Shown here: piece by piece, positions 213-62,537 of the stretch
How the letters are laid out: every line of letters begins with the position of its first letter
Position numbering within the stretch: position 1 is the stretch's first letter
Assembly (NCBI GenBank): GCA_008632985.1
Contig: QPGO01000247.1
Location: forward strand, 1 to 64,000
DNA from: Psammoneis japonica
Lineage: Eukaryota
Reading direction: 5' to 3'
DNA length: 64,000 bases
Notes under the pieces: model-generated
The model's database searches: none
What the model was told of the DNA's origin: nothing
Seen by the model: only the letters and a program-made list of their open reading frames with translations
Program-made: the position numbers and the translations under genes

Positions 213-859
213 GGTGACTGAACTCCGACGTTGAATCGAAAGCGAACCAGGTAGAGGCCGTCGCTGACCCAAGCGATAAAAATGACGTAAGGAAAACGTT
301 GTTTGAAATGCTTTCAATGCCAGACAAGACGGCGTTGACAGAGAGAAATACCAGAAGAGGGTAAGAAGAATCAAAATAGCTCGTCTGTCGATAGCAATCG
401 TCTCAAGCTGATAAACACAAGGCATAAAATATCTCGTCTTTCAATAGCGGTCGTCTTAAGTTGATAACGACAAGACGCAACAACAGAGAGATGCAACACA
501 AACAAAAATGATGCCGCCGGGGCCGTCGACACCCGACACCGCCTCCGCTGTTGCGCGCTTTTTTTCTCTCTGCAATCTTTTTGGCGCGATCGAAATTTAC
601 AGTTTTTTTCTGTTTTCTCCAGTTTTTCTTTTTTCTGATGATTTTTTCGCCCGCGAAATTTTCAGTTGCACAAAAGACAGCATCTGTCTGCCCCTCTACT
701 GCCAGCTCTAGCTGCCATGCCGGTAGAGAGTCGAGAGTGGCTTAGTAGAGAGAGTGGAGATCACAAACCTCAAGACCACATGTCAACAGCCTGTTCCACC
801 GCCTTCACTCTTCCCTCCAAGCTCCAAGCACCCTCATTTTTCTGCGAAAGCCATGACAG

Positions 860-1230
860 AATCAATGTCACCAGCAACAATGACGCAGCGTGTCGGCGCA
901 CTGCTGGGAAACATTTCATCAGCAACTCCTCACAAATGCAGTGCAGTGCCATCATGGAGGAGTGTCTCGGAACCAGTCATGACTCCACGAGCAAACAACA
1001 AAAAAGAACGTTTCGTGTTGCTGCCTCAACATCCACTCATGTTTGGGCACTTGTTGCTGGTGAAATGGGGCAATTTGTCACCAGTTTGATTCTCAACAAA
1101 CTGGGGGTTGGCATCCATGATGTTGCAGTGGCTTGCATTGGTAAAATCAAAGCTCCGAAAAAGACAACAGCAGCAGTGACGATGACAAAAATCCATTCCA
1201 GACAGAAGAAAATGGACGTTGTGCAGTCAA
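860..1230 (+). mobile_element. Degenerate fragment of a DUF6729-like putative DNA transposase
   Basis: GTSHDSTSKQQKR...VWALVAGEMGQFVTSLIL...GVGI resembles the D-S-T-K-K / W-x-x-VGNExGQV block of DUF6729-type elements (recalled, not searched). Confidence 0.35.
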
Positions 1231-1439
1231 CGCAACAGTCGTGCGAGCAAGGGGCAGTTGTCGCGCACAATTTCGCAGGCAGTGCATGTGAAATTCGAGA
1301 TGATTCTGGTGCCGTGTTCAGCATGATGACAGGTTTTTGTTGTCTTCCAGGTGTGGCATCAATGCTTTCTGTGGACTGTCGGTTGGCATGCTGTCTGGAT
1401 GGGTGGGGGTCGATTGAATCGGGGTCTTTCAGTGTCTGC

Positions 1440-2560
1440 AAAGGGACAGACCTGTGCCATGTTCCCACTGCCCGAACTGTGGTGATGCTCATCCTTGCAT
1501 TGACACAGCCGCATGCTTCAGAACATGGCTTTTGCCACTTGTCTGACAGTTTTGATGCCATCTTGTGGTGCATCACCTTGGCTTCCTTGCCAAGCAGTCT
1601 GTCACATGACACAACAAAGGGTGTGAAATGACGGCATTGTTCAAGACAGTGTTTTGGACAGGCATGACTTCGCGTCTGTTTCAGGGGTTCGAACATCCGT
1701 CACCATGTCTGTCCCTTCTGTCCCAAAATCTCATGCCAAGAAGGTCTCCGAGATTGCCATTGTTGGACTTGTTGGAGTTGGTGTTTCCTGGGGAACTGTT
1801 TGGGGGGGTGCTTGAGCTTCCTGTGCTGTGAACAGCAGGGTTGATCAGAGGTTCGTCACGTGCACAGGAAGGTTTGCAAGCCGTGCCCATTGGGTCACCT
1901 GGGTTGTCACGTGCTTCATGAGATGACTGGGCCACCCTTCTTGCACTGAAGAGTGTGATTCATGGTGAATTTGCATCCACATCCATCACAGCACTCCAGG
2001 AGGTCAGGTGGAGCACTGCAATGCCATGGGAAGAGCATGTCACAGAACTCTTGGCACGAGAGTTCTGTGCCATTCAGCATCGAAGGGTGCACTGACAGCC
2101 ATGCTCCAGTCTTGGTGCTGCGCTTGACAGCTCTGGCCTGAAGGCCAGGTGGGGTCCTGAGGATCATTTTGAGGGTCTCCCTGTGTGCTTTAACTTTTCT
2201 GTTGGTTGCTTCCTGCTTCACTTCACGCGTGGTGTCCTTGTGGACTGCAGAGGAGAACTGGGAGCGGCCGTGGAGTGAGTCAATCGTGTGGGAGCACGTG
2301 AGAGCACTTGCTTCACAGTTGTGAGCTGCAGACTCAGTTGGACGAGGGTTGGGTGGTCCCAAAAATTTGATTGGGAGGGCAGATGGGGCTGATCTCTGGT
2401 CGTGGTTGGCTGAGAACTCGCCTGTCAGCACCGGCAGAAAATTGCGCTTCATCACACGTTCCACGTCGGCAAACAATTTGCCACAGTCCTTTGCCAAGCA
2501 CTGGACACAAAGCACAGTTTTGGTTCACTGTTAAGACAATTCTCTGGTGGCACTGGCAAG
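1440..2560 (-). mobile_element. 3' part of a CRE-like non-LTR retrotransposon (zinc finger + restriction-like endonuclease), degenerate
   Basis: GAWLSVHPSMLNGTELS.QEF, CDGCG.KF..H.LQCKKGG, GDLL..RFW, HFTPFVVSCD.LLGKEA, KW.KPCS..CGCVNARMSI. Confidence 0.85.
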
Positions 2561-2659
2561 TCACACTTTTGCACAGCTCAGCAACAGCAGCAGTGGAGCA
2601 AAAAGCACGGTGATTCAACCCATGAAAATGTCAATGGCTCCACCAATCATTCCAGAGTC

Positions 2660-3922
2660 TTTGTTCTCTGAGGTGTGGACGGTTCACCCAGTTGTTTGCA
2701 TTGACACCAGGTGGATCAAGAACGTGTCATTTCCAAAACTCAAAGTGGCCCCACACAACTTTGTGTCCAAGACAGAAGACTTTGATGCAGACATGCCAAT
2801 GCCTTGTGTCGAGCATGTCACCTTTGCATCAAACAATGAATTGGTCACAGTCAATGCAGTGTGGAGTGAAAACTTGGTGGTGTTGCACCCCACATTCTTG
2901 TGGGTGACAGAAACAGAAGGGCTCTCTCAGGACCTGTTCACACCTTAAAATTTTGGACAAAGTCATCAGAAAGAGCTGGTGCCAGAGATGCTTCCTCCTT
3001 TGCATTGTCAGCATCCATGACCAACCCTCATGGACAAGGAAATGCCGTCACATCCATGGCAATGTCCAGCTGTGGCTCTTTTGTGGCAACTGCAAGCAAT
3101 GATGAAAATGGCTTTCAGATGTGGCACAAGGGAAAAGCCGACAAAAGTGATGACAACGACAAAACAACATGGGTTCGTCAGCACAAGATTGCCGTTCCCA
3201 GCGGGTTTTCTAACTTTGGCACAAGCCCCAATGGCACTCCCTTTTCTTCAGATGGGTCTTCATTGGTGACAGCATTTGGACACATGGCGATGTTGTGGGA
3301 TCACACAAACACCACAATGCTGCACTCATCAAGACATTTGGATGGCAGTTTCTTTCTGTCACCAATGTGCCAAACAGAGTCAAGTCATCCTTTTAGATGT
3401 GGTGACAGGCATGCCCCGGACGACACGGCAAGAAGAAAAGTCAATGACATGGTTTCTTGACAGACATGTTCATGCAATCAGTGTCGATGCAGCAGTCCTC
3501 TGCCTGGACACCAGCATCTCCCACTGCCACAGAAGCACCCATTTTGAACAAGGCGGCACCATTGATCAACCTGCATGCATTGATGAGCAATGGAGAAATC
3601 CTTTTGCCAGAGGGGGGGGCATTCTGCCAGTGACACAAAGCTTGTTGGGAGCTTGTCCAAGAAACAACAAAGCATGTTGTCATCAACAGATGTGCAAGTG
3701 ACAAATGTCAGCAACACACAGACACTTGCAGAGATGACATCCTTGTTGCTCAATGATGACAGCACTGTCAGAGAGCAAGCCTCAAGCACATCATTTGGAA
3801 TGTTTGCAACTGAACTTGGGCCGTCATCCGCAGCTTTAGCAACAAACGATTTGCCTGCTTTGAGCACTGCTTCTGCACACAGCTTGGCAGGCAGGAAGCG
3901 TGTCCACTCCTCCAGGCAGTGA
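2660..3922 (+). pseudogene. Fragment of a WD40 gene resembling WDR75/Utp17, frameshifted and TpA-depleted
   Basis: VAPHNFVSKTE...VEHVTF...LVTV, TLKFW, MTNPHG...VTSMAMSSCGSFVATASNDE.GF..W, FSSDGSSLVTAFGH...LWD spread over several frames. Confidence 0.65.
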
Positions 3923-4399
3923 AATGGACAGAGAAAAGGACAGTGCAGACCAGCGACACCTTCTCATGGGCACTTGTGGTCAATGCGATTGTGTTTTCTT
4001 TGCACTTGCTGGGCTGCACTGCAAGAGATTTCTCCTTTCCTAAACTGTTGGAGCAATCGCAGCAAAAGACACCGAGTCTGGCACTTGTCAAAGTGCCAGC
4101 GCCAATTTGCTTGTCAGAGAAGGATGAACGTTCTCCGCACAACTGACTCTTGGGCCCAGACCATGTGAATGCCAGTTGCAAGCAAGGCTTTGGCAATGGA
4201 GAGCTTGTCACACATTGGGACATTCAGGCAAAGGTCAACACGGACAATTGAAGCCAAGATGCAACAACCATGTCATCAATGAGATTCACCACAAAGAATC
4301 AACTGAGCTCAATTTCACATTTCTGACCTGCATCCAAACCAATTCTCCCACGAGATCCATTCTTGTTTGAACTCAAGATCAGGACAAAAGGGAAGACAG

Positions 4400-5560
4400 C
4401 TCACCCATTCATGCAGTTGTTCATTGCTTCCAAGTTGTCCTTCTGCTTTGTGAGTGTTGTGCAGCCCTCCTCAGCATGCAAAGAGAGCGTTTGGGCCAAC
4501 TTGCATTTTTGGGCAACTGATGAGCTCCTGCCTTGAGAAGACCGCATGAGAGAAGCACCCACCTCTTGGCAGTGGCAGACATTGAGCCCAATGTTGCACA
4601 TCTGACATTGAGCAAGAGAAGGAAAGTCCCAAAAACACAATTGAGAGGGTGGATGGAGCTGACATTGTGTTGTCGTTGCTCAGCCAAAGTCTTGCCAATC
4701 AGCTTGGGAAGACAGCTGCATTGCATCAAAAGCTCTGCTCCTGGGAATGATTTGCAGCAGTCCTTGACTGCACATTGGGTGCGCTGCTGCTGGTGCTGTG
4801 TGGGGACTTCTTCAGACTGGTGCGGGCAGTCTGAGGGTGGCAACTCACAATCTTGGTGTGAGTCTCTGGATGCCCGAGGTCCACAACTTGGCTTTTTCTC
4901 ACCAGCCAACAGTCCCGTGTGTCTGTCTCACCAACAAAGCCATTTTTGATGGTGAACCCAAAATCTCCAAAGCATGCTTTGGCATTTTCCAGGTTGCATT
5001 CTGGGACTGCCAGAATGTTCTTGGAGTTGTTGGTGGGGCAGCATCTGTGCTTGGGGGGGGGGGGGGTGGCTCTCAAAGAGTGAAGAAAAAGTCCCAAGGG
5101 TTTCAAATTGTTGTGCTGCAGCCAAGTCATCAGTGTGCCAAGGGGTGAATGTGTGCTGGAAGAGCTCACTCATCTTGTGGACTGGTGGAAGAAGTCCCAG
5201 TCCACAAGCTGCCATGCCAAGTGGGTTGTCCTGTGTCATGCCTTCTCTGCTGAACAGCACAAAGGTGGTGCCAATGTGTCCATGGATGATCAAGATGCTC
5301 CAATGCTTGCAACAGTTCTTGAGTGTGAATCTTGTGACGGATGGCCACAGGTGTCTAATGTTGAGGGGCACTGGTGTCCTGTTCTCCTCACTGAAGTCAC
5401 TGGAGGCATCAACAAAAAGAAATCTGCAGTCATCTTCAAATTTGTGTTGCTTCCAGCACATGTTCATTGCACGAATTGTGCCTTCAATGCCCACTTCAAG
5501 TCCAGCACACCGCCAATCTATCTCACAGGCTTTGTGCACAGACAAATGCATGCAAATGAA
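4400..5560 (-). mobile_element. Reverse transcriptase region of a second CRE-like non-LTR retrotransposon, degenerate
   Basis: CAGLEVGIEG, FLFVDA, RHLWPS..RF..NCCKHW, SREGMTQDNPLGMAACG, PWHTDD (expected PWYADD). Confidence 0.85.
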
Positions 5561-5799
5561 GCATCAGTTGACAACAAGTCAAAAGATTGTCAATGTGGGG
5601 GTGCTGGTGGGGTTGGATGCTCACAAAACACACAAACACAACAAAGCGCCAATCATGTCAGTTGCCAACAACAGCCACATTGACAAAAGGAAAGGCAAGC
5701 ACAAACTTGCTTCTCTTGATCATTCCAGTGCTTTCAATGATTGTTGCAGTGCTTGTGTCAGGCTTCAACCAGCTGTGGTGTCTTTTAAAACCTCAGCAT

Positions 5800-7700
5800 G
5801 ATTGCATGATTGACCTCCCGGGGAGCTCTTGTGCAGGAATGATGAGCATTGGGCAACAGACCACCAATCCCAAGACACAGACCTTCATCCCAACTAATTT
5901 TTCACCAATGGAGAGTGACATTCGTTGGGTCTGTGGGCATGCCTGACCATCCTCCTTGATCATGGACCCACTTTTGTTGGGTGTCTCTCATTTGCTGCAT
6001 TTGGTCTCCCTGGTTGTCATGGACTCCTTGTTGTCCACAGCACTGTTGTTTCACTTGCCAGTTTCACCCAGCTCACCCTTGGATCCTTCATTCTTGGCAA
6101 TTTTCAGAGTGGCCCTCTGGACAACCCCATCTTGGTTGCCATCTGCCACACACCATTTTCTTTCCCAGGATCAGCACATTTGTTAGACTTGCTCAGCTGT
6201 TCACTGGAGAAATGGGCATCTTCAGGTGCATTTGCCACAACTTCAGTCCAAAGATTGGTCTTTCCTGGGCATGTGTCTCTTCATGTGGCTCATGATGATG
6301 ATGCTCTAACTCATTGTGCAACTTTCCCATGTTCCCGGCAGACTCTTGAGCTTGTGCTTCTTTTGGTTTTGCCATTGTGGCTGCATGCCTTGATTTTAAG
6401 ATGTGCAACACACCACCAGTCATCAACCCCAGCTGCTGGGGGCTCCCCAATGACAAGACTGCAGACTCTGACACCAAACAAAATGCAGACATTGAACTCA
6501 GAGATGACTGAAGGGCCTGTCTCCCTTGCGAGCTTTGGCCAGCCATTGCAGCACCCTGCCCAAATTGTCCACGCACAATCTTTGACATGTCCTGAGACCA
6601 TTTTGCAGGGATGGTTGTCATGTCACAGTCTGCAACAATCACTTTGTGGAGAATTGCACTGCCGCTGAAAATCTTGCACCAGTCTGATGTCTCAAGCACT
6701 GCTCATCCCATGTCCCAAGCACTGCTTGTCCCTTTTCTGCCACAGAAGCTGACATTCTCCTTTGAGCAATGTGCTCAACAGTCAATGTTGGCTGGCATTT
6801 TCCTCTCTGTGGCACAGCCAAGGGGTTGGTTGGAGTCAAACTGGGATCCAATGAACTGCCAGGACAGCACATGGCCAATTGTTTGGTGTTGTTGGCATGG
6901 GCAGGGGGGGGGTTCTTCATTGCTGCTGTCAACAGTTCTTGAAGACTGACGCAAATGCTTGGAACAGACACAGCCTCTCTCTCCACATTGGATGCCACCA
7001 ATTTGCTGCTCATGCAATTTTGATGTTTCTTTCAAGCACAACTTGATTGCCATGATGTTTTCCACAATCAAAATTTTGTTGGGTTTGACTGAGATGGGAT
7101 CACAGCCAGCAGAACCACATTGTCACAGTCTTTTTCAAGCAAGGGCAAATGACAAGGAGAAAGTTGCATTTGGGCCCACCGAAGGATGCCACAGCTGCCA
7201 AGAGAGTCCATCCTTCATTTGAATCTTTTCAATGTTGGCACCCAAATGTCATTTTGGCTCACCTTCACTTCCAGGTTTGGCGCAGCACAATCAAAACATC
7301 ACAATCATAAACCAAAAGCATCTCACAGTGCTCATGAACATCTGGACATGTTGCTGTGCAAATCCAAACATCCAGATCTGCCACCAGCCACAGACTGGAA
7401 ACCTGAGTCTCAAATGATTGAAGTGAGATGCATCCTCCAGGAACAACCAGCACTCTTCAAACCACATGCAAAGCTCACACAACAATCAGCATTTTGCCTT
7501 TGTTTTCACCACATTTGGGACCACCTTCAAACCACATCTTTTCAGCACACAGATTCAAGTGCACATTCTTCAAGTTAACAGCAGCAATGTCCACATCATT
7601 CAATGCAGCCAACAACACACAAATTCAAACATTGTCCTTTGAAACAACACTTGAACATGTGATGCCAGCTGGGCCACAAATCATGCCTTCCTCGTGAAAT
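5800..7700 (-). mobile_element. Highly decayed TE-like coding remnant, possibly a LINE 3' region
   Basis: Same TpA/CpG-depleted composition as neighbouring TEs; no diagnostic motif recovered with certainty. Confidence 0.3.
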
Positions 7701-10184
7701 CCATTTTGGTGTCAAATTCCAAGTGACATTTGATCTCTTGATGGCCAATCATGCTTGGGTTCTTGCCTTCTCTGTCTGTTGCGGGGTGTGACCATCTTCT
7801 TCATTCCATGCCACCTTGACTTCAGACATTTCATTGTTGACAGCCTTCCTCCAAAAATCAATCCCCATCTCTGTCAATTTTACAGATTTTTCTTGCCACT
7901 TTTTGGCAGTCTGATCCCAAGCCTGTGAGTGGCATGCCAACACCTTGACTTGACCTGTGAAAGCATGCGGTTTCCATTTTGTGGCACTTGAGGAATCCAC
8001 CAAGCAAAAGCCAGTTTGTCAACTGTCCAATTTGCAACCATGCACTCTGCTGACTCAACCGGATTGGATGCTTTCAATTGTTCTTTGAGTTTGATCAATT
8101 GTGTTGACCCATCCTTCCACAGTGCCAGCAGCTCCCAACCTTGAGCACTCACTTTGTGCCTTTCTTGCCCACTCTTGGTCTCAATCAAACTGTCTGAGAT
8201 GGAAATGGCCAAACCGTTGCTCCAATGGTCTTGAATCTCTTCCAAGATGGAACAACGATGCCCAGCATTGCCCACCTGCTCAAATGTGTTCTCGGCAATG
8301 ACACCGGCAGTGCACTCATCTACAGTGCCATCAGCACAGGTGATTTCACACTTGCATGTGTCAAAAACAGGATCAGAGTGCCCACAACCAATTGGCTGAC
8401 CATCCAGGCCTCATGCACACTTTGTGACAGCTCTTTTTTGCTCTGCATCAGTGCCAACATCAAAATCAAGCTCCACACCCAAAAACTTGTCAACAGCTTC
8501 TTCATCATCATCTTCCAGTCTTTCATCCAACAACAAGTTTTCGCACTCTTGATCAGTTGGTGCAAGGTTGTCATCATGTGAAACACCAGGATTCTTGTCC
8601 CCAGATGACATCATCCAACACAAAAGCAAACTGGTCCTTGAGGACAAAGTTGAAACTCATTGTCGTTCAGTCTGTTCTCAAGTTTGACATTGAAATCTTT
8701 GATCTTCTTTGTGACATTAGGGCTCACACAATCATCACAGATCACATGCTCAGCTGAAGTTTTTGAAACCAATGTCCACTCTCAGGAGTGATCAACCAAT
8801 GGCACACATCCAAGCCTGCCTTGTGAGATGCACACAACCATTGTCCCAATCAAGTTGGATCATCAGCAATGTTGGGTTTGTCGAGTTGATCCCACCACCA
8901 AACAAGATCACAGAATTAAAAACCAAGGTGTTCTCCAATTTCCAGTGTCTGTCCTGTGACCTCTTTGCAACCGGCTCTTTTGCACTTTCCATGCAACATG
9001 TGCAACAGCAACTTGGCTTTGCTTTCTTCTTTTGGTCATTTGCAGCTGCCCACCTCTTTCCAAGGAATCCCATCTCATGTTCTGCTGCATGATTTTGATT
9101 TTTCCTTCCTTGTTCAGAGACTTGCAATTTGATCATCATTTGATGTGCATGCTCAATGAAATCAGTCTGGCTGCCAGCAAACTCTCCTGCTCCATCCATT
9201 GTCAAGCATTCTTGGGCACCAACATCATGTGCAAAGTTAACAAGCAATTGACCGGCCTCGGAACAAGCACCCATCAGATGAACCTTCACAAATTTCCCTT
9301 GCACAACCACATTTGCACAAGTGTTGCCAAGAATTGATTTGACTTTTGCCAACGCAGCATCCACAAAACAAGTTCCCTTGAGTCTCAGTCTGTGCAAATC
9401 CAAGTGATCAACCCTCGTGCATCTCAACATGGGCTGAGCAGATGTCTGCACAACTCACTGAGCAGTTGCTTTCAAGGCATCTTGAGCACTTTTGAGTCCA
9501 ATGTTCCACTTTCTTGCCATCTGCTCTGCCATCACTGCAGAATGCCTCATGTTGCTGTTGAGTTCTTTTGCTTCCAATTTGTCAATGTCATTCTGAAATG
9601 CACAAGCAACTCACACCGACAAAATCATGTTGTCACAAAATGACTGCAAAGCACAAACCAGAAACAAGTGCTCTGATTCATGTTTGACTTCACTCCATTC
9701 CACTGCCTTCAACTCAGATCTCTCATGATGCAACTCAGATGTTTGGACTTGTCTCATGCCTGAAGTTAACGAATGAACAGTCTTCATGTCTCACTTTGTT
9801 TGACAGCACAACTGCCAAAGCTCAAATCAATGTTGACTGGATCCCATGTGCTGCCAGCAAGAAGAGCAACTGGCAATTTTTGTTCTTCCCATTCAGTTGG
9901 GACATGAGATTCAAAGCATGCAACTGTCCCTGTGGCATGAAAGGAGACAAAATCTTTGTCTGCCTGAGCACCAAATGCATCTCAGGGACCAAACTGATCA
10001 TCGCCAACCGGGATGTGATGCACACAAAAATGATTGTGATTTGTCAAAGAATGATCCAATGCAGCACCAAACCAGCCCACAACATTTGATCACCAACGAG
10101 CAAGTGTTCAATGCTTGAAGTCTGTCTGATCCATCCATGCAGTGCAACAATGGGCAATCAGCACTTCCTTCACTGAGTTGCACG

Positions 10185-10398
10185 AATCCAAAAATGGGCT
10201 GACCTTGCAAATCACCACATTCAAAATCTCCATCAGCTGCCAATTTGCTCCAGCAAAACAAGTGTCTGCATGGGTGTCACATTCATTGAGTTGCGCAAAT
10301 CCAAAAATGGGCTGACCTTGCAAATCACATTCAAAATCTCCATCAGCTTCCAATTTGCTCCAGCAAAACAAGTGTCTGCATGGGTGTCACATTCATTG
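10185..10398. repeat. Tandem duplication (~105-113 bp unit) covering the Copia protease active site
   Basis: aatccaaaaatgggctgaccttgcaaatc...gtcacattcattg occurs at ~10185 and ~10298. Confidence 0.9.
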
Positions 10399-14734: not shown

Positions 14735-14745
14735 TGTCAATTCAA

Positions 14746-36268: not shown

Positions 36269-36280
36269 GCTCTCGGTCTG

Positions 36281-50929: not shown

Positions 50930-52409
50930 GACATTTTGTGCAAATTTTGTTCACAATGTCGGGGACTGGCCCGCGTGCCGCAAGGCGTGGTGTCCAGGGT
51001 GCCATGCTTCGAGCGCAAGCACAACGTTCCATCTGGGTGGAGTCCTTCAACCCGACCAACAAAGCGACGATGGAGCGCAGCTCGGCAAGGATGCCGCTCG
51101 ACTTGAGGGCAACGCATGGTTTCGGAAGCCCCAGGACAAACACAAGTTCACCCGAGCACACATGGGAGACCATCTCATGGTGGCCTTTGAGTGCGACTCT
51201 TGCATGTTTCACAAGCTGCATCACAGGGACCCGGGGACCTCCTCTCCACGAGACAAGATGGCGCCAGTGTGCATCAGGCGAGTGAATCTGGACGCACTTT
51301 GGAGCAGGGAGACCACTGCGGTGGAAAACAACGCCTCCAAGGTGGCTCGGGGATTGGCCCCATCGGAGCGGCTTGGGCTCAATGGCCCTCATCTGGAGCC
51401 AGGGCCTCTTCCGTCTTATGACCATTGTGGCCATGAGGTTGCGATGCAGATTGTCCTGGCCTCGACCTCCCCGGGACGCTGCTCAGAGTCTTACACTCAA
51501 TTTGACACCATCAGGAAGCTTCGCACCGCGCACTCCAATCAGGCAAGGGCATCAGCCTCAGCCAATTCACGAGCCCTTGCTTTAGCGGATCTTGAAGGGA
51601 AGCAATGCCTTCGGATTTGTGAAGACCCCTGCACCTCCTTGTGGTTCCAAAGGTTCATGACAGGATGCAAGCGACGAATGGGCCAGGACTGGAGACCTGA
51701 CAGGGCCATTTCGGTCCAGGTCATGCAACACCTTCTTCCCAGGCTCGAAGAGAAGTTCCTTTGGGCCACGACTGCTGGGGATCGGTTCAGGTGCTTGATT
51801 GGGGGCTTCTGTTTCTCCGCGAGTTTCACATTGTCCCTTCGGGGCCCAGAAGGATTGCTCATCGACTTGGGAGCTTTGAGGGAGCACCTCCCCCTCCATG
51901 AGTCGCGCGCAGTGATCCCGCTGCTCGGTCGGGTCAAGGGAGAACATGGGGAGCGGCAGCACCTTCTTCCAAGTGTGAATGTCACTGGATCCGGAATCCG
52001 GTTGCGACAATGGGCCCAAGCGGTGGCAGCCTTACAGGCCTCGAGAGGACGGACCCTGGGCCCCGCCATGTCCGATGCGGGAGGCAAGGTTGTCCCCACT
52101 CGGGACTTGAACTCCCTCCTTCATTTCGCATTGTCAGAGCTGTTGGACGACCACCCAGCCCTCTTTGCCGCTGACATTGCCTCCCACACTGACATCGAGG
52201 ACAAGCATGATGTGAGCAGGTCGTTCCGGCGGGGGTCGGATTCCCAAGCCATCGCCTGGAAGGTCTCAGAAGATGACATCGACATTGTGAATCGATGGAA
52301 GAAGAAGGAACGGGCAGGAGCAGCGAGGCCCACACACAAGATGAGGCAGCATTGTGCTGACATCTCACTCCTTCTTCCGTCTTTTTTGAGATGCACACAG
52401 GAAATGTGA
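50930..52409 (+). pseudogene. Tyrosine recombinase of the YR retroelement; the expected catalytic Tyr position reads Cys
   Basis: SLRGPEG (R), GRVKGE (K), RSFRRG, NRW, MRQHCAD (expected HYAD); start approximate. Confidence 0.85.
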
Positions 52410-53318
52410 GTCACGTTCCTCGACTTGTCTCGACTGTTCATTCCTCGAGATTTTTCCTTTCAGGTGGCCACTGCCCGGGAGTTCTCATCGGGGGGGATTT
52501 GAGCTCAGCTTTGCTGGTGCGACCACGGGAGTCTCCTGGTGAAGTCTAGAAGGTTTCCTCCTACGATCCACTCTCAACGACGCGCTCCTGCGGAGTCACA
52601 ACAATTGCGTCTGGCATTGCCTTCGACTCCGGTTCGAGACTCACCTCTTGCGGGGCACCGACGTCGCGCAATGCCAAAGGCACCCCGCACTGGGCTCAGC
52701 CGGAAGCGCCCGGAGCAGTTCCCAGTGGGTTCCATTCATGAGCCCTCGAGCTAGACTCGAGACCCTGCGGAGGGCATGGGTGTCACCCAACCCCCCTTGT
52801 GCGGAGCAGAGTGTCACCGAAAGCTCTGCTCTGTGAGTCTCCTGAGTGTTCTAACACCAAGTTGCTTCTCAGTGGTTCTTGGCTCGGCAGTCTAAGTCTG
52901 GCCCAGATTGGAGTCGGTGCCGCACTGTTTCAAATCCTCCTCACACCCAAGTTTAGATGGAGACGTGCCGTGCGATGCAAGACTCCCCAACTGACTAGAC
53001 CTCAGACTTGTGCCTCTTCCAGAAGCGGGCACTTCTGGACCAAGATGGCCGGTCATGGTGACCGGTCAAATCTGTCGGCCATTTGCTTTTCACTTTTCCA
53101 TCTTTGTTGAGACAGGAACCCTGATCAATGTGACTGGATCATTCCAAAGCACTGGAAAAGCTTCTTTTTGCAACCCACCCACCACTCCCTGGATTTGAGC
53201 TCAGCTTTGCTGGTGCGACCACGGGAATCTCCTGGCAAAGTCCAGAAGGTTTCCTCCTGCGATCTGCTCTCGACAACGCGCTCCTGCGGAGTCACAACAA
53301 CTGCGTCTGGCGTTGCCT

Positions 53319-53742
53319 TCGAGGGCTCGTGAATGGAACCTGCCAGGAACTGCTCCGGGCGCTTCCGGCTGAGCGCAGCGCGGGGTGCCTTCGGCATTGC
53401 GTGACGTTGGCACCCCGCAAGAGGCAAGTCTCGAACCGGAATCAAAGGCAATGCCAGACGCCATTGTTGTGACTCCGCAGGAGCGCGTCGTCAAGAGCAG
53501 ATCGCAGGAGGAAACCTTCCAGACTTTGCCAGGAGAGACTCCCGTGGTCGCACCAGTGAAGCTGAGCTCAAATCCAGGGAGTGGTGGGTGGGTTGCAAAA
53601 AGAAGCTTTTCCAGTGCTTTGGAATGATCCAGTCACGTTGATCAGGGTTCCTGTCTCAACAAAGATGGAAAAGTGAAAAGCAAACAGCCGACAGATTTGA
53701 CCGGTCACTGTGACCGGCCATCTTGGTCCAGAAGTGCCCGCT
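53319..53742 (-). repeat. Inverted copy of the A/B terminal repeats of the YR element, forming a fold-back
   Basis: Reverse complement of ~53021-53322 plus further B1 sequence (~52623-52749). Confidence 0.9.
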
Positions 53743-55274
53743 GTAGACCGAGCCTAAGGGTGGTCGGTTGCCACTTTTTTAGCTCGAATTCGGCCGAACA
53801 GCTCGTGTTTTGCATGATTTTTCCTGAATTTCACCGTGCTTCACCGTGGTGAAAACAACAAGCCATAAGTCTGTGACGGAGGTGGTCCGTCTACCAACTC
53901 TCATTTATTTTATGTTTGTCATGTAACAAAGATTGTACACACATGAAAAGTTGGTAGACGGCAAACTACGTTTTTGAGAAACATCGATGATTGTCATCAT
54001 CGTCGTGCTTCGGTCGCGGTGCTGATGGTTCTCGTTTTCGTGCGCGATCGGGTGTGACTGTGAATAATTCTTGTATTCAAAAATAAACACTATAAAAAAC
54101 CTTATTCAAATGCAACGGTAATTTTAGGATAAACGCGGGGATGACCCCCCCTAAGACGGACGGTGGCTCAAAATTTGCTCTACAGAGCTTTCTACACAAA
54201 ACATGCCAGAAAATGTGCCGTTCCGACGATGATCGATTTCATCGGCGCATCGACCACTGTGCCTTACACCGTTCAGTGGTTGTTCAGATGCTCGCTGTTG
54301 AAGCGCACCATGGTGTTAGAACGGAGAAAATTGGCAAACATTTGATTGATTTATCCCCGAGACTGACCAAGTGCAAAATCGTCACTTTTTCGGCAGGTGC
54401 TGACATGTGTCGTTGATTGTCGTCGCATGTTCCGCTCCGTTGCGCCCTGTAAGTTATGACATGGAAACTTGTGCATGTTTTCGTTGTTGCCTTGCAATGG
54501 CATTGTCTTTCTTGTGGCACAACCATTGTTTCTGTCGTTCGTAACAAATGGCTTTGCATTTTTTGCCAGAAATGTGCTCACTCACGGATTGGGCTCTTCC
54601 TCGTTGTCACGCAGGTTCTCAGTCCATGTGATGCCTTGGTGTTGTTTGTTGGTGTCTGTGTGAGACGTGGTTTGACCACAGCTCTGAGATTCGAGGCAAA
54701 GACAGTCTGGGGTCTCATTTTTGGTTGGGCGTCGCTGTTTTGTGACATTTTTGGAGATTTTTGGACGGTTGTGTCGATTTCTTACCGCTTGGGTAGATTT
54801 GAGTGCATTGGCTGTGCTCATTTAGTGACACTGAGTCAAGGAGGTGAGCTCATGTGACAACATTGTCAACTGTTGGCATTCAAACTCACTCAATGGGGCT
54901 TGCACTTCGCGCAGGATTTCATCAGTTCGCGACAGTGTGGGTGCCTCTAGACTTGGGATGCAACAACACACTGTGTAGGATGGAGAGTTCAGGACTCTCT
55001 TGAGGTTGTGCAATGCAACAGAGGATGACAAGAAGTGGTTTTGGGACAATGAGACATGCCAAAGACACGAATTGTGAGAAGATCTCACGAGGGATTGGAG
55101 ATGACATTGTGACCCAACGGTCATGTGTGTCACTCCGATTGCTGTCGCTAGAAGACTCAATGGACATTTCTTCCGGAAGAAGAGATCCATGACCGGAAGC
55201 GTCATCCGTGAATCAGACTCGGTTGTTGACTCGTGACTCTCCCTCTCAACCGAAAAGAGAAGGAGAACTGTCAG

Positions 55275-58200
55275 TCACCAGCCCATGAGGGCTTTGCGAC
55301 CAGTGCGGAAGAGATCAACAGTCAATCCTTCAGCAAACTGGTCAGCAAGCTGTGCAGCTGAGCTCACAGGCTCAATTTTGATCTCCAAAGCCTCAACTTT
55401 AGTGTGAAGCCAATGGTGGGGAATGCCGATGTGCTTGGTTCGTGGGGACAATTTTGGCACACGGGCGAGTTGGAGGCAGGCAGCATTGTCTTCATACACA
55501 ACGGATGCTGGGAGGTTAGCAGAGTCAATGGGAGAATCCTCAGTTCCGTCGTTGGCGTGTCGGAAAGCCTTCGAATGTGTCGAAATATCGGTCTGTCTGT
55601 CCGGCTGTCCGAAAACGAGCGCGTTGATTTCCTTCACGATCTCGCGAAGGGGGATGAGATCACGCATCGCTTGGGAGAGGGCGACATGCTCGGCTTCCAT
55701 GGTGGAGAGTGCGACGAGGGTCTGCAACTTGGACACCCAGACAATCGGACATCCTGCACAACAAATGACACATCCCGCACGTGACTGAACAGACGTGGGA
55801 TCTTGTCCATCTTCAACACTGAAGAGTCCCGCGAAATCAGCATCAACATGGCAGTCGAGTCGTTGATCGGCGGTTGGAGTTGGGATGAGTCCTTTGTCGG
55901 CCGCATCCTTCAGGTGACGAAGAATGCGCTTGATGGCCACAGCGTGGGAGGCCTTGGGTGCGCAGGAGAACCGTGCGACTTGATGGGTCACGCAAGCAAT
56001 GTCCGGGCGGCTGTTGGACGCTAGACACATCAGCATGCCGACCACGGAACGGCAGTCATGAGGCTCATCGAACGGTGGCCCGTCGGCATCGCTGCCAGCT
56101 GGAGCAGGCAAGGCAGGAGTGGGTGCGCCGTTGCACTCAGTCATCTGTGCGGTGCGGAGAACTTTCTCAATTAGGCCGGGTTGGGTCAGGAGGAATTGGC
56201 TGTCTTCGAGCTTTTGAATCTTGATGCCTGGAAAGTTGCCGACTTCGCCTTCATCACGTAGATCAAAGACATGGCGTTGCTCATCATCAGAAACACCCAA
56301 CTTGGCAATCTCTGCTTCCAAGGCTTGGGCCGATGCGCCGGCGAACACGGTGTCATCAACATGTGCCACACATGACACACCCTTTTTGAAATAAAGACAA
56401 GGGTCAATGGCGGATTGAATCCATCCTCTTTCGAGCAATCCGTCCCTCAGCTTTTCATGGAAGCACTTGGGAGACTGGCGTAGGCCGCACAGGCCTTTCA
56501 ACAATTTTGGCACCAGATCGGCGCCCGATTTTGGCTGGAAACCCTTGGGAGGCTCTACATGGACCTTCTCCTTGATGTCAGCTTGGCAGAAGGCTGCAGT
56601 GCAGTCCACTTGACGTGCAGTCCAACCTTCCTTGAGCACCGTGGTGAGGAGAAGGCGCATGGACGACCATTGCACTGCCGGCGCGCAGGTCTCGAAAAAA
56701 TCGATCCCGTGTTTCTGCAAATCGCCGCGAACGCAATGTCGTGCCTTGCACTTCAAGGGCGCACCATCCGGGAGTCGTTTGAGTTTGAAAGCCCATGTGC
56801 TGGGTGGCACATTCACATCTGCCGTTCTTGGCACCATTTCCCATGCACGTCGGTGGAGCAGCGCGTTGGCTTCAATTTTCACAGCCTTGACCCACTCTTC
56901 GGATTCATCACTGCGCATGGCCTCGTGTGAAGAAGGCATGTCGGGATCTTTTTGCTTTTTAGCAGTTGCATGTACCCTGGGATCGTTGACATTGTAGGTT
57001 TCCGTCTCNNNNNNNNNNNNNNNNNNNNNNNNNNNNNNNNNNNNNNNNNNNNNNNNNNNNNNNNNNNNNNNNNNNNNNNNNNNNNNNNNNNNNNNNNNNN
57101 NNNNNNNNNNNNNNNNNNNNNNNNNNNNNNNNNNNNNNNNNNNNNNNNNNNNNNNNNNNNNNNNNNNNNNNNNNNNNNNNNNNNNNNNNNNNNNNNNNNN
57201 NNNNNNNNNNNNNNNNNNNNNNNNNNNNNNNNNNNNNNNNNNNNNNNNNNNNNNNNNNNNNNNNNNNNNNNNNNNNNNNNNNNNNNNNNNNNNNNNNNNN
57301 NNNNNNNNNNNNNNNNNNNNNNNNNNNNNNNNNNNNNNNNNNNNNNNNNNNNNNNNNNNNNNNNNNNNNNNNNNNNNNNNNNNNNNNNNNNNNNNNNNNN
57401 NNNNNNNNNNNNNNNNNNNNNNNNNNNNNNNNNNNNNNNNNNNNNNNNNNNNNNNNNNNNNNNNNNNNNNNNNNNNNNNNNNNNNNNNNNNNNNNNNNNN
57501 NNNNNNNNNNNNNNNNNNNNNNNNNNNNNNNNNNNNNNNNNNNNNNNNNNNNNNNNNNNNNNNNNNNNNNNNNNNNNNNNNNNNNNNNNNNNNNNNNNNN
57601 NNNNNNNNNNNNNNNNNNNNNNNNNNNNNNNNNNNNNNNNNNNNNNNNNNNNNNNNNNNNNNNNNNNNNNNNNNNNNNNNNNNNNNNNNNNNNNNNNNNN
57701 NNNNNNNNNNNNNNNNNNNNNNNNNNNNNNNNNNNNNNNNNNNNNNNNNNNNNNNNNNNNNNNNNNNNNNNNNNNNNNNNNNNNNNNNNNNNNNNNNNNN
57801 NNNNNNNNNNNNNNNNNNNNNNNNNNNNNNNNNNNNNNNNNNNNNNNNNNNNNNNNNNNNNNNNNNNNNNNNNNNNNNNNNNNNNNNNNNNNTGCCCCCC
57901 TTCCAACGGATGGATGCGTGGAGAAGCATCGCTCTCGCCATGTTGGAGACGGAGCGAATGCCGCGTTCTGTGACGCCGTTCTGATGGTGGGCATTGGTTC
58001 CGCAAAAACGTAGACGTTGTTCGTGCTGTCGCATGTGTTGCACAAAAGCATTGGCCTTGAAAGCGCCAGAATCGGCAAGAAATTCTTGGATGATGACGCC
58101 GTGGTCCATCGCGTGCTTTTCAAACGCTTGCTTCGCTCGCACCGTTTCCACAGCAGAGAAACCAAGTTGGTGTTCAACATGCAGGTAACCGGAGGCATGA

Positions 58201-61200
58201 TCCACAAAAATGCAGCCTCCTTTGCATTGCTGGGACGAGGCCTTCCCGCAGGAGTCGCAGGTTCGGCCGAGGAGACGGGATTCGAAGTGATCCACGCTGA
58301 CGGCTTGGCCTGGGCGTAGATGCTCGGTGCATGGCACGCCATCGTCTTGACGACGAGCTCAGAGCCGTCCTCGTTGTGGAAAACCCAGGAGACGGGTCCG
58401 ATGCCGGCGATGGTTGAGCCATTTGCTAGACCCCCAAGCTTCAATGGGCCACCAGGGATCGTCAGAGGTCGGACAAAGTCGTTTTCATTGCAAGCAATGG
58501 CCAAGGATGCGCCAGCATCGCATGTGATGGTGTGGCGCTCATGTGCCAGGCTCAGCAAAGCTTGCGGGTTGGCGGCGAGTTGTGCTAAAGAACGTTGGCC
58601 TGTCAATGCCTGCACAGAGGCATGAGTGGGACAGGCTTCGGTTCCATCAGTAGCTGCCTGGAGAAGCTTCACAGGGTCTTGCCATGGAGTGGTGTCCACG
58701 AAACCAAACTTGGTGGACAGCTCGTCGAAACGAAAATAGTCCGGAGAGAGCTCCTCAACCGCATCAAAGCAGTGGCTCGGCTCGGTCGGGAGCGGGCCGA
58801 GGGCTTCCTCTGAATCACAGGTGTCGAAGCAGGACTCGGGGTCTTCTAGAGCTGGAGGGACACAGCGGCCTGGGGAAGAGCATGCGTCGTTCTCCCAGAG
58901 CTGCGTGAATTTCTTGCTCAGACAATGGTCCGGATCGAGCTCCACAAATTCGGTGAGCACTTGTTGCGCCTTGATCTTGTTGTGTTCCACCAAACTGCCC
59001 GGATCTGACACTGTCTCATCGTCCAGTTCTTCAATGATCGAGTGGACCTGAGAGCCAGCTTTGGAGAAGCGAGAGGGGACATTGGAGAATGGATGCGTGG
59101 GAAGCTGACCGTTGAAAACAGACGCCCAGACCATGACAGCTCCAGTCAGCACCATCCAGGTAGAGGGGAAACCGTGAATGGTTGGGATGAATGCCTTGCG
59201 GCGTGTACGACGAGGTAAGACAGGAATCGGCGCACAGCAAATGTGCAGTGCCATTTCCCAGAACATGGCAAACAGCCAGAAAACTCGGAGCTTCAAGAAG
59301 TTCCAGAAGAGCTCAAGACGAGAGCTCGGCGTTGCCTCCTCGACGCCACAATCAACATCTTGGGGTTCGGGATCGTAAAATTCGAAACCGCGACACTGGG
59401 TGCTTGGAGGTAAGTGCTCGTAGCTGTCTTCGAAAGGTGGGATGCTTGCCCCGGAAACGAGATCATCTGACACGTCGTCAGACAGACCTTCCACGTGAGT
59501 TGCGATCGTGTCATAAAACACGTCCGGATTTTGAATCTCATGCACAGCACAGGCCGGAAATGGCTCGACAGCTGACGGCAGGGAGTCAAAAGAGGAGTGA
59601 GCGTCGGAGTGCTCGGAGCAATCGTCAGCGTCTTCGGGGTCAACCGTTTCAACCAAGATGGGAGCGGGTTTGGCCACGGCAGTCTCCCTCTCGGCCGATG
59701 GAGCAGGAGTGAACGTGACGGTCGTAGTCACTGGAGTCGAACTCAAAGAGTCGTCCACAGGTGCACACCACATGCCGCAACAAACCAGCTTGTTAGGGTC
59801 AGAGGGTTCATCTGTAGGCGGAGACGTCGTCTGCTCGGGAGGACCAAAAGGAATGCCCGAAGAGGGGTCCGACACAGCAGATAAATTTGCCGCAGCGGTG
59901 GTTTCGGTTTTGACAGACGGTTTCCCGGTGTGTTGAGCGGAGGAGTGGCCTTGACACATGCCCTTCTTGCCCGTTTCCTTGTTCACACACTTGTCGCACC
60001 AGTGCCAGGTCGTGCCTTTCTCGTCAGTGACAGTGGCACCTTTGTGAACGAAACGCCAGGCCGGCTTGGGTGGTTTCTTGGAAGGGTTGGTCTTCCGGAC
60101 ATCCGGAGGGTCATCCTTGGACTTGTCCGCCGTGCCCTTTTTGTCCTTCTTGCATTGCTCCTTGCAGGTGGGACACGTGCGTTTGGTGCACCCAACCTTG
60201 CCACAGCCGTGGCAATGCTTTTCCGAGTTGTCCTTGGCGAGGTTGGATTCCGGGAGCTTGGCTGCTGAGGCAGGCCAATCTTCATCGCTAATGAGTTCGC
60301 CATGGGTCTTGGTGATCCAGCCAATGAGGCCAACAGGTCCAAGATCCGCACAGTCGGCATCCTTGGGGACTTCTGCCGGGTCACGCAAGCAACATTTGCG
60401 CTCCAAGCGCTTGACGGAGTCGAGCTTGGCAAAAACTTGACGATTGAAAAACTCGGAGGATGTCTTTGATGCCTTAGATAAAATGGTGGACCCAGTTTCA
60501 ACTGGCAACGCATGGTCCGTCTGCATGATCTTGAGCGGGCGCAGAGCTTCGGTTGCAAGCTCGGTGCAGCCCTCGCCAGGGCAGGTGTCCAGAGTTAAGT
60601 CGTTCAACTTTTCCTTGGCGGCCTTGACGTCAACCAGAGCACTGGCATTGCAGGCATCCAGAGCCATCATAAATGAGACAGACCCCGCAAGATCCTTGTA
60701 GTTCTTCAAGTGATTAAACTTGGCTTCAATCTTTTCACGGAAGGTTTCGGTGATGCGCGACTTGACGATGAGTTGTGATGAGCCGATGTCATCGATTTCA
60801 TGCTGATCGTAGCCTTCGTCACCTGTGGCCGCCACACGGGTCTCACATTCCTTCTCAAGGTCTTTGACAGTGAAGGCATGAAGATGATCAAAAAGGCACA
60901 TGACCTTGCCGTCGACTTTCTTGAGATGGTAGAAAGTTTCTTGTCCGTGCGACTCGATTAAGTCCTGAATGGTCTTGACGAAGTGGTCTTTGTCCAGTTC
61001 AGTGCTGGAACCGTTGGATGGCTCAATCTGGCCGTTGAACTTGGATGTGGTTGCCGAAGCGAGTTGATCTCGGAGAGATCGCTCGATAGAGTCGACAGCT
61101 TTCGGATGGCGACGTTGCGAGGCAAAATGGCAGGTGCGGGTGTCGGTCTGCTCGCACTTGTTGTTCAGAGCCGAACCACCCAGATGCACTCCATGAGAGT

Positions 61201-61309
61201 GGTGGATGCCGCCGCGAAGCGGCGTGGGGATCGCAGGAGGGTTGGTCGAGGTTTGCATCTTGGCGAAGGCCTCAGCAAACATCTTGACGGTGTCAGGATC
61301 CATGGACAT
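55275..61309 (-). pseudogene. Copia gag-pol; frame change and probable deletion between protease and integrase (~58330)
   Basis: Zn knuckle CHGCGKVG; CDAGAS protease; VSVDHF, FVDHAS, ADSGAF, HHQNGVTER integrase; WAFKLKR, HVDD RT; HVDADFAG, YEDN, QLADQF RNase H. Confidence 0.93.
57009..57892. other. Assembly gap (884 N)
   Basis: Run of N. Confidence 1.
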
Positions 61310-62537
61310 GGTTGTGGATGATTCGACACAGAGGATCGATTAGCAGGTGGGGATTGCGACATAGATGATCGCCGTTGGATTGCGACATAGAAGATCGCCG
61401 TTGGATGGGATGTCGTCTGTAACGAGACGAACGAGTGGCAGCAACTCCGTTACGAGTTGATGCCGGTGCGTGGATTGGGGTCGTAACCACTTGGGATGCA
61501 ACAATGCACTGTGTAGGATGGAGAGTTCAGGACTCTCTTGAGGTTGTACAATGCAACAGAGGATGACAAGAAGTGGTTTTGGGACAATGAGATGCGCCAA
61601 AGATGCGAACTGTGAGAAGATCTCACGAGGGATTGGAGATGACATTGTGACCCAACGGTCGTGTGTGTCACTCCGATTGCCATCGCCAGAAGACTCAACG
61701 GACATTTCTTCCGGAAGAAGAGATCCATGACCGGAAGCGTCATCCGTGAATCAGACTCGGTTGTTGACTCGTGACTTCTGGCAATGGCATGAGACAAACA
61801 CCGTCACAGCGACAAGCACGTGCACACAGGAGACACAAAAGAATGTGTGCAAAGGTTAATTGGCAAGTCGGTGTTGCAATTTTGCTCATAATTTGCTTCT
61901 GTGACTCAACAATTGCAGTTTTTGTTTTCGCCTCTAGCAAGATCTCCCACTTTAAGACGCAGCGCGGATCGAAAACACAGGCTGATCAGTGGGCTTGGTG
62001 GGGATTCAGCAGCATTCTTTGGTGCACCTCTCGGTGCTCAGTGGCACTGTCGTGTCTCTTCCTTGGCGTTAATTGCCGGTGAGAATATTTCTATTTTTTG
62101 CATTGATGTTTCCAATTTTGTTGCCTCTCTTGAATCCTGTGTCACGGATGTTCTCACTTCTTGCACCCTCCCTTCTCTTTTTGGCCTCCCATCATGCGGC
62201 AACTGCTGGTGGACGACTGCCAGCTCAATGACCTGGCGTGATAGTTCATAGGTCGTGGTTCGATGTGTGGCTAGCGCGATCGAGCCGAGAGAAAAGGATC
62301 GACACATCCGATTGTGAATGATGGAATGAGGAGCTGTGTGGCAGTTGCGCAACTACAGGGCTTTGTCATGGCAACTCGAAACATCCCAATGCCACAAAAG
62401 ATTCATTCTACAGTGCTAGATAGCCTTGGGAGTCGTCGTTCATGCCGATAACAGCAATGAGACGATGCGCTTGCGGCATGTCCGGAAAAACGGCACCGTA
62501 ACAAACGGCCTACATACGACCCTGGTACATCGTCCGT

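Follow-up and report, generated by a model that had tools for sequence, protein, structure and literature searches.

The closest described counterpart of the process considered here comes from Bigelowiella natans, where Mettrop et al. (bioRxiv 10.64898/2026.01.13.699255, 2026) report hypermutation of TpA to TpG or CpA in integrated viruses. According to the main text of that preprint, 231 of the 302 nuclear mutations recorded across 15 mutation-accumulation lines lay in one giant-virus and one virophage region, and 230 of those 231 were A to G or T to C changes, every one of them at TpA. Per site and generation the rate there came to about 6e-7, compared with 3.5e-10 in the rest of the genome, and the process was seen in some lines only. 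The same text counts 124 clusters of TpA-poor, CpA+TpG-rich 1-kb windows in the B. natans genome and 324 TpA-poor coding sequences (mean TpA frequency 0.0018), enriched in reverse transcriptase (RT), endonuclease-RT and DDE domains. It proposes an ADAT2 homologue as a candidate enzyme and names retrotransposons only as potential targets. The present analysis concerns a stretch of 64,000 nucleotides from contig QPGO01000247.1 (positions 1 to 64,000, forward strand), called the window throughout, in which TpA is nearly gone from about 54 kb of transposon-derived DNA and stands at an ordinary level in four host-like segments. This signature is the long-term footprint of the B. natans kind of process, and its likely cause is a host process that mutates A:T to G:C at TpA in integrated transposon DNA, on either strand, with host genes spared. 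A preliminary description of the window had proposed such a mutator and had held that no system of the kind was characterised. The interpretation is right in kind but not unprecedented, since the B. natans preprint had measured the same kind of process (10.64898/2026.01.13.699255), and the window is a clean instance of it.

Fungal repeat-induced point mutation (RIP) resembles the window process in being a mutational defence that applies one transition class in one dinucleotide context, hits integrated repeats and spares genes. It differs in direction: in RIP it is C that becomes T, chiefly in CpA, and TpA arises as a result, as set out in the discussion of the B. natans preprint (10.64898/2026.01.13.699255), while the process in the window does the opposite. 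RIP also requires duplicated sequence and a sexual cycle, whereas the main B. natans target is single-copy (10.64898/2026.01.13.699255). Fungal RIP is ruled out for the window, where TpA is destroyed rather than created; on the same ground the pattern had been called the opposite of RIP, and distinct from the decay of 5-methylcytosine, from the outset. A literature search turned up only RIP and unrelated papers besides the B. natans preprint, as far as the sources were available, and one on retrotransposons of B. natans yielded no helpful paper.

Over the whole window the observed/expected ratios are 0.16 for TA, 1.56 for CA, 1.54 for TG and 0.63 for CG. Segmentation by TpA density delimits the following parts, for which the values given are again observed/expected ratios:

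212-847: host-like segment with ordinary TpA (0.43-0.62 over the four such segments) and CpG about 1
848-13519: TA-poor block 1, saturated, TpA 0.039 and CpG 0.21, with 34 TpA in 12.7 kb
13520-14873 (minus strand): host-like segment, TpA 0.51, CpG about 1
14874-23166 (plus strand): TA-poor block 2, TpA 0.044 and CpG 0.22, with Gypsy pol remnants inside
23541-29186: TA-poor block 3, TpA 0.044 and CpG 0.37
29187-31317 (minus strand): host-like segment, TpA 0.63, CpG about 1
31318-37539: TA-poor block, TpA 0.093 and CpG 0.74
38035-62258: five TA-poor blocks, TpA 0.13-0.18, CpG 0.71-0.95, GC 54-59%
62259-64000: host-like segment, TpA 0.62, CpG about 1

In the three saturated blocks (within 848-29186) only 76 TpA remain in 26,613 bp; the number expected is 1,837 from base composition and 1,121 from the TpA density of the host segments. 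A further part of 6,222 bp holds 35 (378 and 262 expected on the same two grounds), and another of 21,257 bp holds 163 (953 and 895 expected). The transition from normal to depleted TpA spans roughly 100-300 bp. The segmentation and the host open reading frames (ORFs) described below bear out, for this window, the initial observation that TpA is depleted in transposable elements and normal in host genes. By the thresholds of the B. natans preprint, with Rho taken as the usual observed/expected ratio, 30 of the 63 one-kb windows qualify as TpA-poor and CpA+TpG-rich, and they make four clusters (1001-13000, 15001-23000, 24001-29000 and 32001-37000); 29 further windows pass the TpA threshold only.

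The lost TpA can be accounted for. In host segments the dinucleotide frequencies are about 0.042 for TA and 0.146 for CA+TG, values similar to the B. natans coding-sequence means of 0.041 and 0.137, a similarity that is not diagnostic (10.64898/2026.01.13.699255). The nearest relatives of the transposons are environmental proteins of at most 60% identity, with no self-match among them. Between 848 and 13519, TA has fallen from about 0.045 to 0.003 (a loss of about 0.042) and CG from about 0.05 to 0.012 (a loss of about 0.038), and TG+CA has risen from about 0.144 to 0.227, which equals the summed losses. In 31318-37539 the loss is in TA only, and TG+CA there is 0.19. TG and CA are each raised, to observed/expected values of 1.5-2.0. 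Since the oldest blocks are strongly depleted in CpG too, their surplus of TpG and CpA stems in part from ordinary decay of CpG. This CpG depletion of the oldest blocks (0.21-0.37) had been overlooked in the preliminary description. Decay of CpG through 5-methylcytosine is similar in that it also yields TpG and CpA and acts in the same blocks (848-29186); it differs in that it cannot remove TpA or change tyrosine (Tyr) codons to Cys or His codons.

The direction of change can be read from coding remnants. These were recognised by scanning 267 stop-free ORFs of at least 90 amino acids against Pfam, a scope that holds for the Pfam results given here. The elements concerned are:

16583-18087 (plus strand): Gypsy RT, RNase H and integrase zinc domain (Pfam)
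31198-35752 (plus strand): exonuclease element, whose protein exceeds 1,170 amino acids and has a DEDDy-type 3'-5' exonuclease as its sole recognisable domain
42664-49770 (plus strand): Copia A, a complete long terminal repeat (LTR) retrotransposon whose LTRs occupy about 42663-42940 and 49493-49770 and are 96.4% identical
47565-49543 (plus strand): Copia RVT_2 domain of Copia A (Pfam)
54951-61776 (minus strand): Copia B, an LTR retrotransposon whose LTRs occupy 54951-55238 and 61489-61776 and are 95.1% identical
55278-57008 (minus strand): Copia RVT_2 domain, the RT/RNase H ORF of Copia B (Pfam)

The full list of Pfam matches comprises RT, RNase H, integrase, exonuclease, WD40 and one weak lipid-transfer match, and no recognisable domain was found in 23541-29186. 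Tyr is strikingly scarce in these elements. It is absent from all three Pfam-supported Gypsy ORFs. The Gypsy ORFs, the exonuclease ORF and the RT ORF of Copia B contain 0-0.5%, the ORF that lies upstream of this RT contains 0.8%, and Copia A contains 1.0-1.5%. The Gypsy pol remnants (16477-18087, plus strand) have CVDD as their RT catalytic box and AFCS as their RNase H motif. The CVDD box aligns with the YVDD of the solved foamy-virus RT (7o0h), and the Ty3 RT 4ol8 was matched as well; the Gypsy RNase H ORF had no match in the PDB.

The altered motifs quoted in the preliminary description are all present: HATS (16477), GCCH (16504), KCEC (16575), CVDD (16685) and AFCS (17193) on the plus strand, WHTDD (5126-5140), HVDD (56352) and HVDADF (55833) on the minus strand, and CAALD (33415) on the plus strand. 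The last of these reads YAALD in both homologues of the exonuclease protein, and HVDD and HVDADF both belong to Copia B. The change of the Copia YVDD to HVDD applies to Copia B, while Copia A still reads YVDD intact (48374). The label of a long interspersed nuclear element for the WHTDD region could not be confirmed, as no RT homology was found there in Pfam (E up to 0.5) or the PDB (E up to 5).

For polarisation, Copia B was compared with its 120 closest homologues (and also with 150 representatives) and the exonuclease ORF with its two homologues. Together these comparisons give 26 conserved Tyr columns, which read His 12 times, Cys 11 times, and Trp, Arg and Tyr once each. Against the 120 closest homologues, which are 42-60% identical, 14 Tyr columns of Copia B read His (7), Cys (6) or Trp (1), and other conserved columns are retained in 243 of 291 cases; against the 150 representatives, nine Tyr columns read Cys (5) or His (4). 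In the exonuclease ORF the 12 columns that are Tyr in both homologues read His (5), Cys (5), Arg (1) and Tyr (1). Both homologues are 45-58% identical and contain 3.3% Tyr each, and Gly, His and Trp columns are retained at 97-100%. Reverse changes are absent, with Cys to Tyr in 0 of 11 and His to Tyr in 0 of 16 conserved columns. Since the relatives carry Tyr and the copy in the window does not, the direction of change is TA to TG or CA, as first proposed. Nor did the homologues carry Cys or His beforehand, for all 120 closest Copia homologues keep Tyr (median 3.4%, minimum 2.26%).

Three database Copia proteins, P0132, P0119 and P0055, are also without Tyr, P0132 having one Tyr in 2,061 amino acids. 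They are 34-37% identical to the ORF at 55278-57008 and carry Cys or His at conserved Tyr columns, with a choice that differs from that in the window. This difference points to the same process acting on other Copia families, in this or another genome. The DNA encoding the three proteins was not found in two scans of viral contigs.

The change is specific to TpA. Over 689 pooled conserved columns, 11 of 26 TAY codons had their second base changed from A to G, compared with 4 of 185 CAY, CAR, AAY, AAR, GAY and GAR codons (p 1e-8), and the A to G excess is thereby confined to TpA. At codon position 1, T to C occurred in 12 of 26 TAY codons and in 3 of 91 elsewhere (p 4e-7). First-position A to G replacements were preceded by T in 14 of 19 cases, against a background of 143 of 545 (26%; p 2e-5), and unchanged codons beginning with A were preceded by T in 1 of 104. 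Eight of the ten second-position T to C replacements are NCA codons. Both strands are affected about equally (His 12, Cys 11), which agrees with the early description of the change as A to G after T on either strand.

The sparing of ApA bears on a role for error-prone repair. In immunoglobulin hypermutation, polymerase eta gives A:T to G:C changes at WA, with TA the hottest site. A polymerase of this type, miscopying T at WA during repair synthesis in methylated or damaged repeat chromatin, would find its opportunity in the CpG decay of the same blocks, which suggests methylated chromatin with frequent T:G repair. However, ApA was changed in only 1 of 34 (K to R) and 1 of 20 (N to S) cases, compared with 11 of 26 for Y to C, and the LTR pairs described below contain no transversions. 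In addition, the block 31318-37539 has TA at 0.09 with CG at 0.74, so that TpA loss is independent of CpG decay. An origin in such repair synthesis is very unlikely, and of the earlier suggestion of an A:T to G:C repeat mutator it is the mechanism class that is supported, while the WA specificity of a polymerase eta fits poorly.

The few TpA that survive in the saturated blocks give a view of the sequence context. The commonest are TTAA (24), CTAA (24), GTAA (10), ATAA (8), CTAC (4) and CTAG (4), and the scarcest ATAG (1), ATAC (1), GTAC (0) and ATAT (0). A TA with a pyrimidine before it on both strands resists, and one with a purine before it on both strands is gone. At codon junctions where the strand can be resolved, T|AC became T|GC eight times, T|AT became T|GT four times and T|AA became T|GA once; T|AA junctions show an excess of C before A, suggesting a hit on the opposite strand. 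The simplest per-strand target implied by these small counts may be T-A-Y, with TAC the best and TAA the worst substrate. When Tyr outcomes were split by the preceding base no clear difference was found, and this split does not decide between T-A-Y and R-T-A.

The same context weighs on a second chemical route. 5-Formyluracil mispairs with G, and 5-hydroxymethyluracil in dinoflagellates favours T before A. A TET/JBP-type dioxygenase could oxidise T at TpA to 5-hydroxymethyl- or 5-formyluracil in silenced DNA, and the oxidised T would occasionally pair with G and give T to C on either strand, the mutation being a by-product of a silencing mark. The sequence outcome would be identical, as TA to CA is TA to TG on the other strand, and the specificity counts fit equally well. 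Such a mark has a precedent in the silencing of dinoflagellate transposons by 5-hydroxymethyluracil made by a dedicated enzyme (PMC11572971). On the other hand, the near-complete loss of TpA would demand a very mutagenic mark, and the conversion of A eight times before C and once before A is more naturally explained by the anticodon-loop context of TadA. Thymine oxidation is the main alternative, yet an improbable one.

The timing of the process is recorded in repeats that began as identical copies. The two LTRs of one retrotransposon are copies of a single template and are identical at integration. The LTR pairs of Copia A and Copia B together show 19 events, with no transversions and no insertions or deletions: five TG versus CA doubles, seven differences between TA and TG/CA, six between CG and TG/CA, and one other transition. 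When random transitions were simulated 5,000 times on the LTR sequences, the share falling into the classes that relate TA or CG to TG/CA reached at most 0.857, against 0.947 observed, and TG versus CA doubles numbered at most 2, against 5. A TG versus CA double is what remains when a single ancestral TA or CG has been mutated twice, independently, and one site reconstructs as ATACG changed to ACATG in one LTR and to ATGCG in the other. Per lineage-site, 17 of 36 TpA (7 of 26 without doubles) and 6 of 70 CpG were mutated, with one change outside the TpA and CpG classes among 1,132 lineage-sites. TpA mutation is several-fold faster than CpG decay, which supplies 6 of the 19 LTR events, and hundreds-fold above other sites.

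Because the LTRs of a pair were identical at integration and now differ at TpA, the process acts after integration, on both strands of the DNA, and this speaks against an editing of RNA. The idea that an ADAR-like enzyme edits A to I in double-stranded RNA of retroelements and that reverse transcription then fixes the change has two points in its favour, namely that U is preferred before the edited A according to the main text of 10.64898/2026.01.13.699255 and that most recognisable elements in the window are retrotransposons. It is nevertheless contradicted by the post-integration divergence of LTRs of one element at TpA, by the equal sense and antisense outcomes (Cys 11, His 12), and by the presence of the signature outside retroelements, in the exonuclease and inverted-repeat elements and in unannotated DNA. 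The B. natans mutations, moreover, are reported in single-copy, integrated, silent viral DNA (10.64898/2026.01.13.699255). We regard RNA editing as an extremely unlikely source. More generally, ADAR and APOBEC enzymes resemble the window process as deaminase restriction that leaves clustered transitions in integrated copies, but ADAR acts on RNA, on one strand and before integration, and APOBEC changes C to U, so that neither fits the data.

Other repeats in the window carry the same classes of difference:

37091-37328 and 52934-53171: direct repeat of 238 bp, copies 15.8 kb apart and 93.7% identical
20866-22043: inverted-arm element with arms at 20866-21264 and 21640-22043, 86.7% identical

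All 11 events in the direct-repeat pair relate TA or CG to TG/CA, and the arms of the inverted element differ by 10 TG versus CA doubles. Variants between the copy in the window and other genomic copies, taken from the 40 best-supported of 76 places, give 34 events, 21 of them in these classes and 13 outside; they are compatible with the process but not clean, and are not part of the main evidence. The order of TpA values follows age, from the LTRs of Copia A (0.43-0.46) through those of Copia B (0.10-0.11) to the old blocks (0.04), and depletion progresses with the age of the element.

Whether the DNA could have been free of TpA from the start, or made to look so, was considered with the sequencing reads and with distant relatives. 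Selection by a TA-cutting nuclease or by UA-sensitive RNA decay might produce natively TpA-free elements, and an assembly or sequencing artefact might imitate them. TpA is under-represented in most genomes, the host segments here stand at 0.43-0.62, and the GC-rich elements between 38 and 62 kb are only moderately depleted, all of which would suit such an explanation. Against it, catalytic residues have been lost (YVDD to CVDD or HVDD, and the exonuclease Tyr to Cys), all 120 closest Copia homologues keep Tyr and distant relatives have ordinary TpA, LTR pairs diverge exactly at sites of the TpA and CpG classes, and read contigs of about 60x depth agree with the assembly. Destroyed catalytic residues together with diverging LTRs exclude selection for TA-free sequence, and native composition or artefact is contradicted to the point of being hardly credible. 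The read contigs in question are Logan contigs, assembled independently from the public run X1, whose unitigs have a depth of about 60. They span the TA-poor stretches 15549-16798, 17547-18613, 21993-23132 and 25335-28315 and reproduce the sequence, each with 0-2 differences over 0.8-1.25 kb, which supplies read support for the substitutions. We know of no sequencing artefact with a TpA-erasing signature. The relatives comprise the two database proteins already mentioned and seven metagenome loci that match the exonuclease element at 26-50% protein identity, too distant for nucleotide polarisation and used for composition only. In their matched parts TA is 0.59-0.85 in six of the seven, and the seventh match (L007), of 138 nt only, has TA 0.29.

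Taken step by step, the favoured host process would convert TA to TG or CA in integrated transposon DNA on either strand and would continue until almost no TpA was left. Tyr codons would become Cys or His codons and other TA-containing codons would be destroyed, which would kill the elements, and host genes a few hundred bases off would escape. Targeting may proceed through silent or methylated chromatin rather than through sequence duplication, because CpG decay occurs in the same blocks, stretches of single-copy depth are depleted, and the main B. natans target is both single-copy and silent. As to chemistry, TadA and ADAT2-ADAT3 deaminate A after U or T (tRNA position 34 follows U33), and the TadA substrate is U-A-C. 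This matches the T-A-C preference in the window, and a TadA/ADAT-like enzyme that deaminates adenine in DNA, yielding inosine, is favoured because T-A-C is the native context of that family; we give it about an even chance of being the chemistry at work. The likeness has its limit, as natural TadA/ADAT enzymes act on tRNA, the DNA activity of TadA came from laboratory evolution, and no such gene was found among the ORFs of at least 90 amino acids in the window. The terms genome defence and adenine deaminase used in the preliminary description remain inferred.

Several points weigh against this account. All of it is inferred from one assembly, and no mutation was observed occurring. The process may be the same as that of B. 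natans, judged by signature only, and we give roughly an even chance to an origin of the window in B. natans or one of its close relatives. As initially noted, no enzyme is evident in the window, the Pfam scan of ORFs of at least 90 amino acids having returned no deaminase or other candidate. The seven single LTR differences between TA and TG/CA cannot be polarised from two copies, and the TG versus CA doubles could derive from CpG as well as TpA. Common descent may explain some of the TA losses that copies of the high-copy family have in common. Between 38 and 62 kb the depletion is weaker and CA+TG enrichment falls below the preprint threshold, and the depletion there could partly be composition inherited by GC-rich elements. 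The T-A-Y context comes from small counts and a host baseline of 5.9 kb. Finally, run X1 may be the assembly's own data, so that agreement with it rules out an error of assembly, whereas a systematic artefact of sequencing would have passed unnoticed.

Set beside B. natans, the window shares changes that are almost only A to G or T to C at TpA, targets that are foreign or mobile integrated DNA with the rest of the genome normal, and clusters of TpA-poor, CpA+TpG-rich sequence (10.64898/2026.01.13.699255). The B. natans process was measured live, and the giant-virus and virophage inserts retain many TpA, at 3.3% and 9.2% of dinucleotides (10.64898/2026.01.13.699255). The evidence in the window, in contrast, is historical, its targets are LTR retrotransposons and other repeats, its saturated DNA is down to 0.3% of dinucleotides, and CpG decay accompanies TpA loss in its oldest blocks. 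Neither an LTR-pair test nor a T-A-Y context appears in the main text of the preprint (10.64898/2026.01.13.699255).

The comparison defines what the window adds to the subject. It gives independent support, drawn from sequence only, for LTR retrotransposons and other repeats as targets, for saturation, for action after integration and for a loss of TpA several-fold faster than CpG decay. To our knowledge, fungal RIP (C to T) is the only well-established mutational genome defence of this depth. The erasure of TpA through A:T to G:C change would be a second and mechanistically opposite kind, so far described in a single 2026 preprint about viral inserts. The candidate T-A-Y per-strand target narrows the search for an enzyme, and if that enzyme were a natural DNA adenine deaminase, it would be relevant to genome-defence biology and base-editing technology. 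A more far-reaching proposal, which we hold only tentatively and think doubtful as a whole, is that the window does not come from B. natans and that a natural, chromatin-guided DNA adenine deaminase reading T-A-Y on either strand serves as its lineage's general transposon defence, present in more than one protist lineage. Such an enzyme would be the natural counterpart of laboratory adenine base editors and the process a mirror image of RIP, and P0132, P0119 and P0055 would mark further genomes with a deaminase of this sort.

A practical consequence concerns annotation. With TAA and TAG nearly gone, as are Tyr codons, almost every stop codon in TA-poor DNA is TGA, and overlapping ORFs of 500-1,100 amino acids occur on both strands, for example 43764-47042 (plus) and 44421-46406 (minus), most of them without a family match. 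TA-poor DNA therefore yields long false ORFs that would mislead gene finders, by over-calling, and domain searches. One such long frame, the ORF of 1,139 amino acids upstream of the Copia B RT, gave no hit (Pfam, E up to 0.5).

The individual elements have some further properties. Copia A is flanked on both sides by the 5-bp target duplication TCGGG, and TpA in its internal part is 0.26. It sits in DNA that was already TA-poor. In Copia B the internal part has TpA 0.18, and the element contains an assembly gap at 57009-57892. The 238-bp direct repeat may represent the LTRs of an older element interrupted by Copia A. Within the exonuclease element, the 3'-5' exonuclease domain lies in an ORF of 1,170 amino acids at 31198-34707 (plus strand), and contig depth suggests about 10 copies of the element. 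The inverted-arm element has a contig depth of 23,000-53,000, compared with about 60 for unique sequence, and may be a MITE-like or satellite family; no coding potential was recognised in it. The remaining features are as follows:

2870-3457 (plus strand): WD40/WDR75-like fragment, Pfam E 4.5e-6, just under the curated cut-off, without Tyr and in TA-poor DNA
10986-11698: tandem duplication of 358 bp inside saturated TA-poor DNA
14847-15578: tandem duplication of 356-358 bp inside saturated TA-poor DNA
14051-14785 and 29650-30435 (both minus strand): paralogous pair of host ORFs, 55% identical
38035-42662, resuming at 49771-53741: older TA-poor DNA forming the insertion site of Copia A, TpA 0.13 and 0.16
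53024-53742: palindrome of 719 bp with arms 86% identical

The WD40 fragment could be a captured or duplicated piece of a host gene that was mutated together with the repeats. The two host ORFs contain 2.0-2.3% Tyr, have TpA of 0.51-0.63 and begin with hydrophobic N-termini; no relative of the ORF at 29650-30435 was found among 842 candidates in a protein collection. Within 12-32 kb, the long pieces of run X2, from the same sample, cover only these two ORFs. Short contig joints between 14.3-14.5 and 29.9-30.2 kb are matches of 21-35 nt among paralogues and are not taken as splicing. Rfam and tRNA scans of the window gave no match.

At two positions the window reads TA and all covering X1 contigs read CA, namely 18984 (TTA to TCA at depth 57) and 28041 (GTA to GCA at depth 609, in eight contigs). 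The culture that was assembled and the one that was sequenced could have been separated by continuing TpA mutation; divergence among copies, or an error, could equally account for these discrepancies.

The tandem duplications at 10986-11698 and 14847-15578 are 98.9% and 99.7% identical, respectively, and their differences consist of CpG changes, one other transition and one transversion, with none at TpA because almost no TpA remains. Amid the TA-poor, CpG-poor repeat DNA, a segment of 374 bp at 23167-23540 has CpG 1.74 and partly ordinary TpA, and resembles either a CpG island or a more recent insertion.

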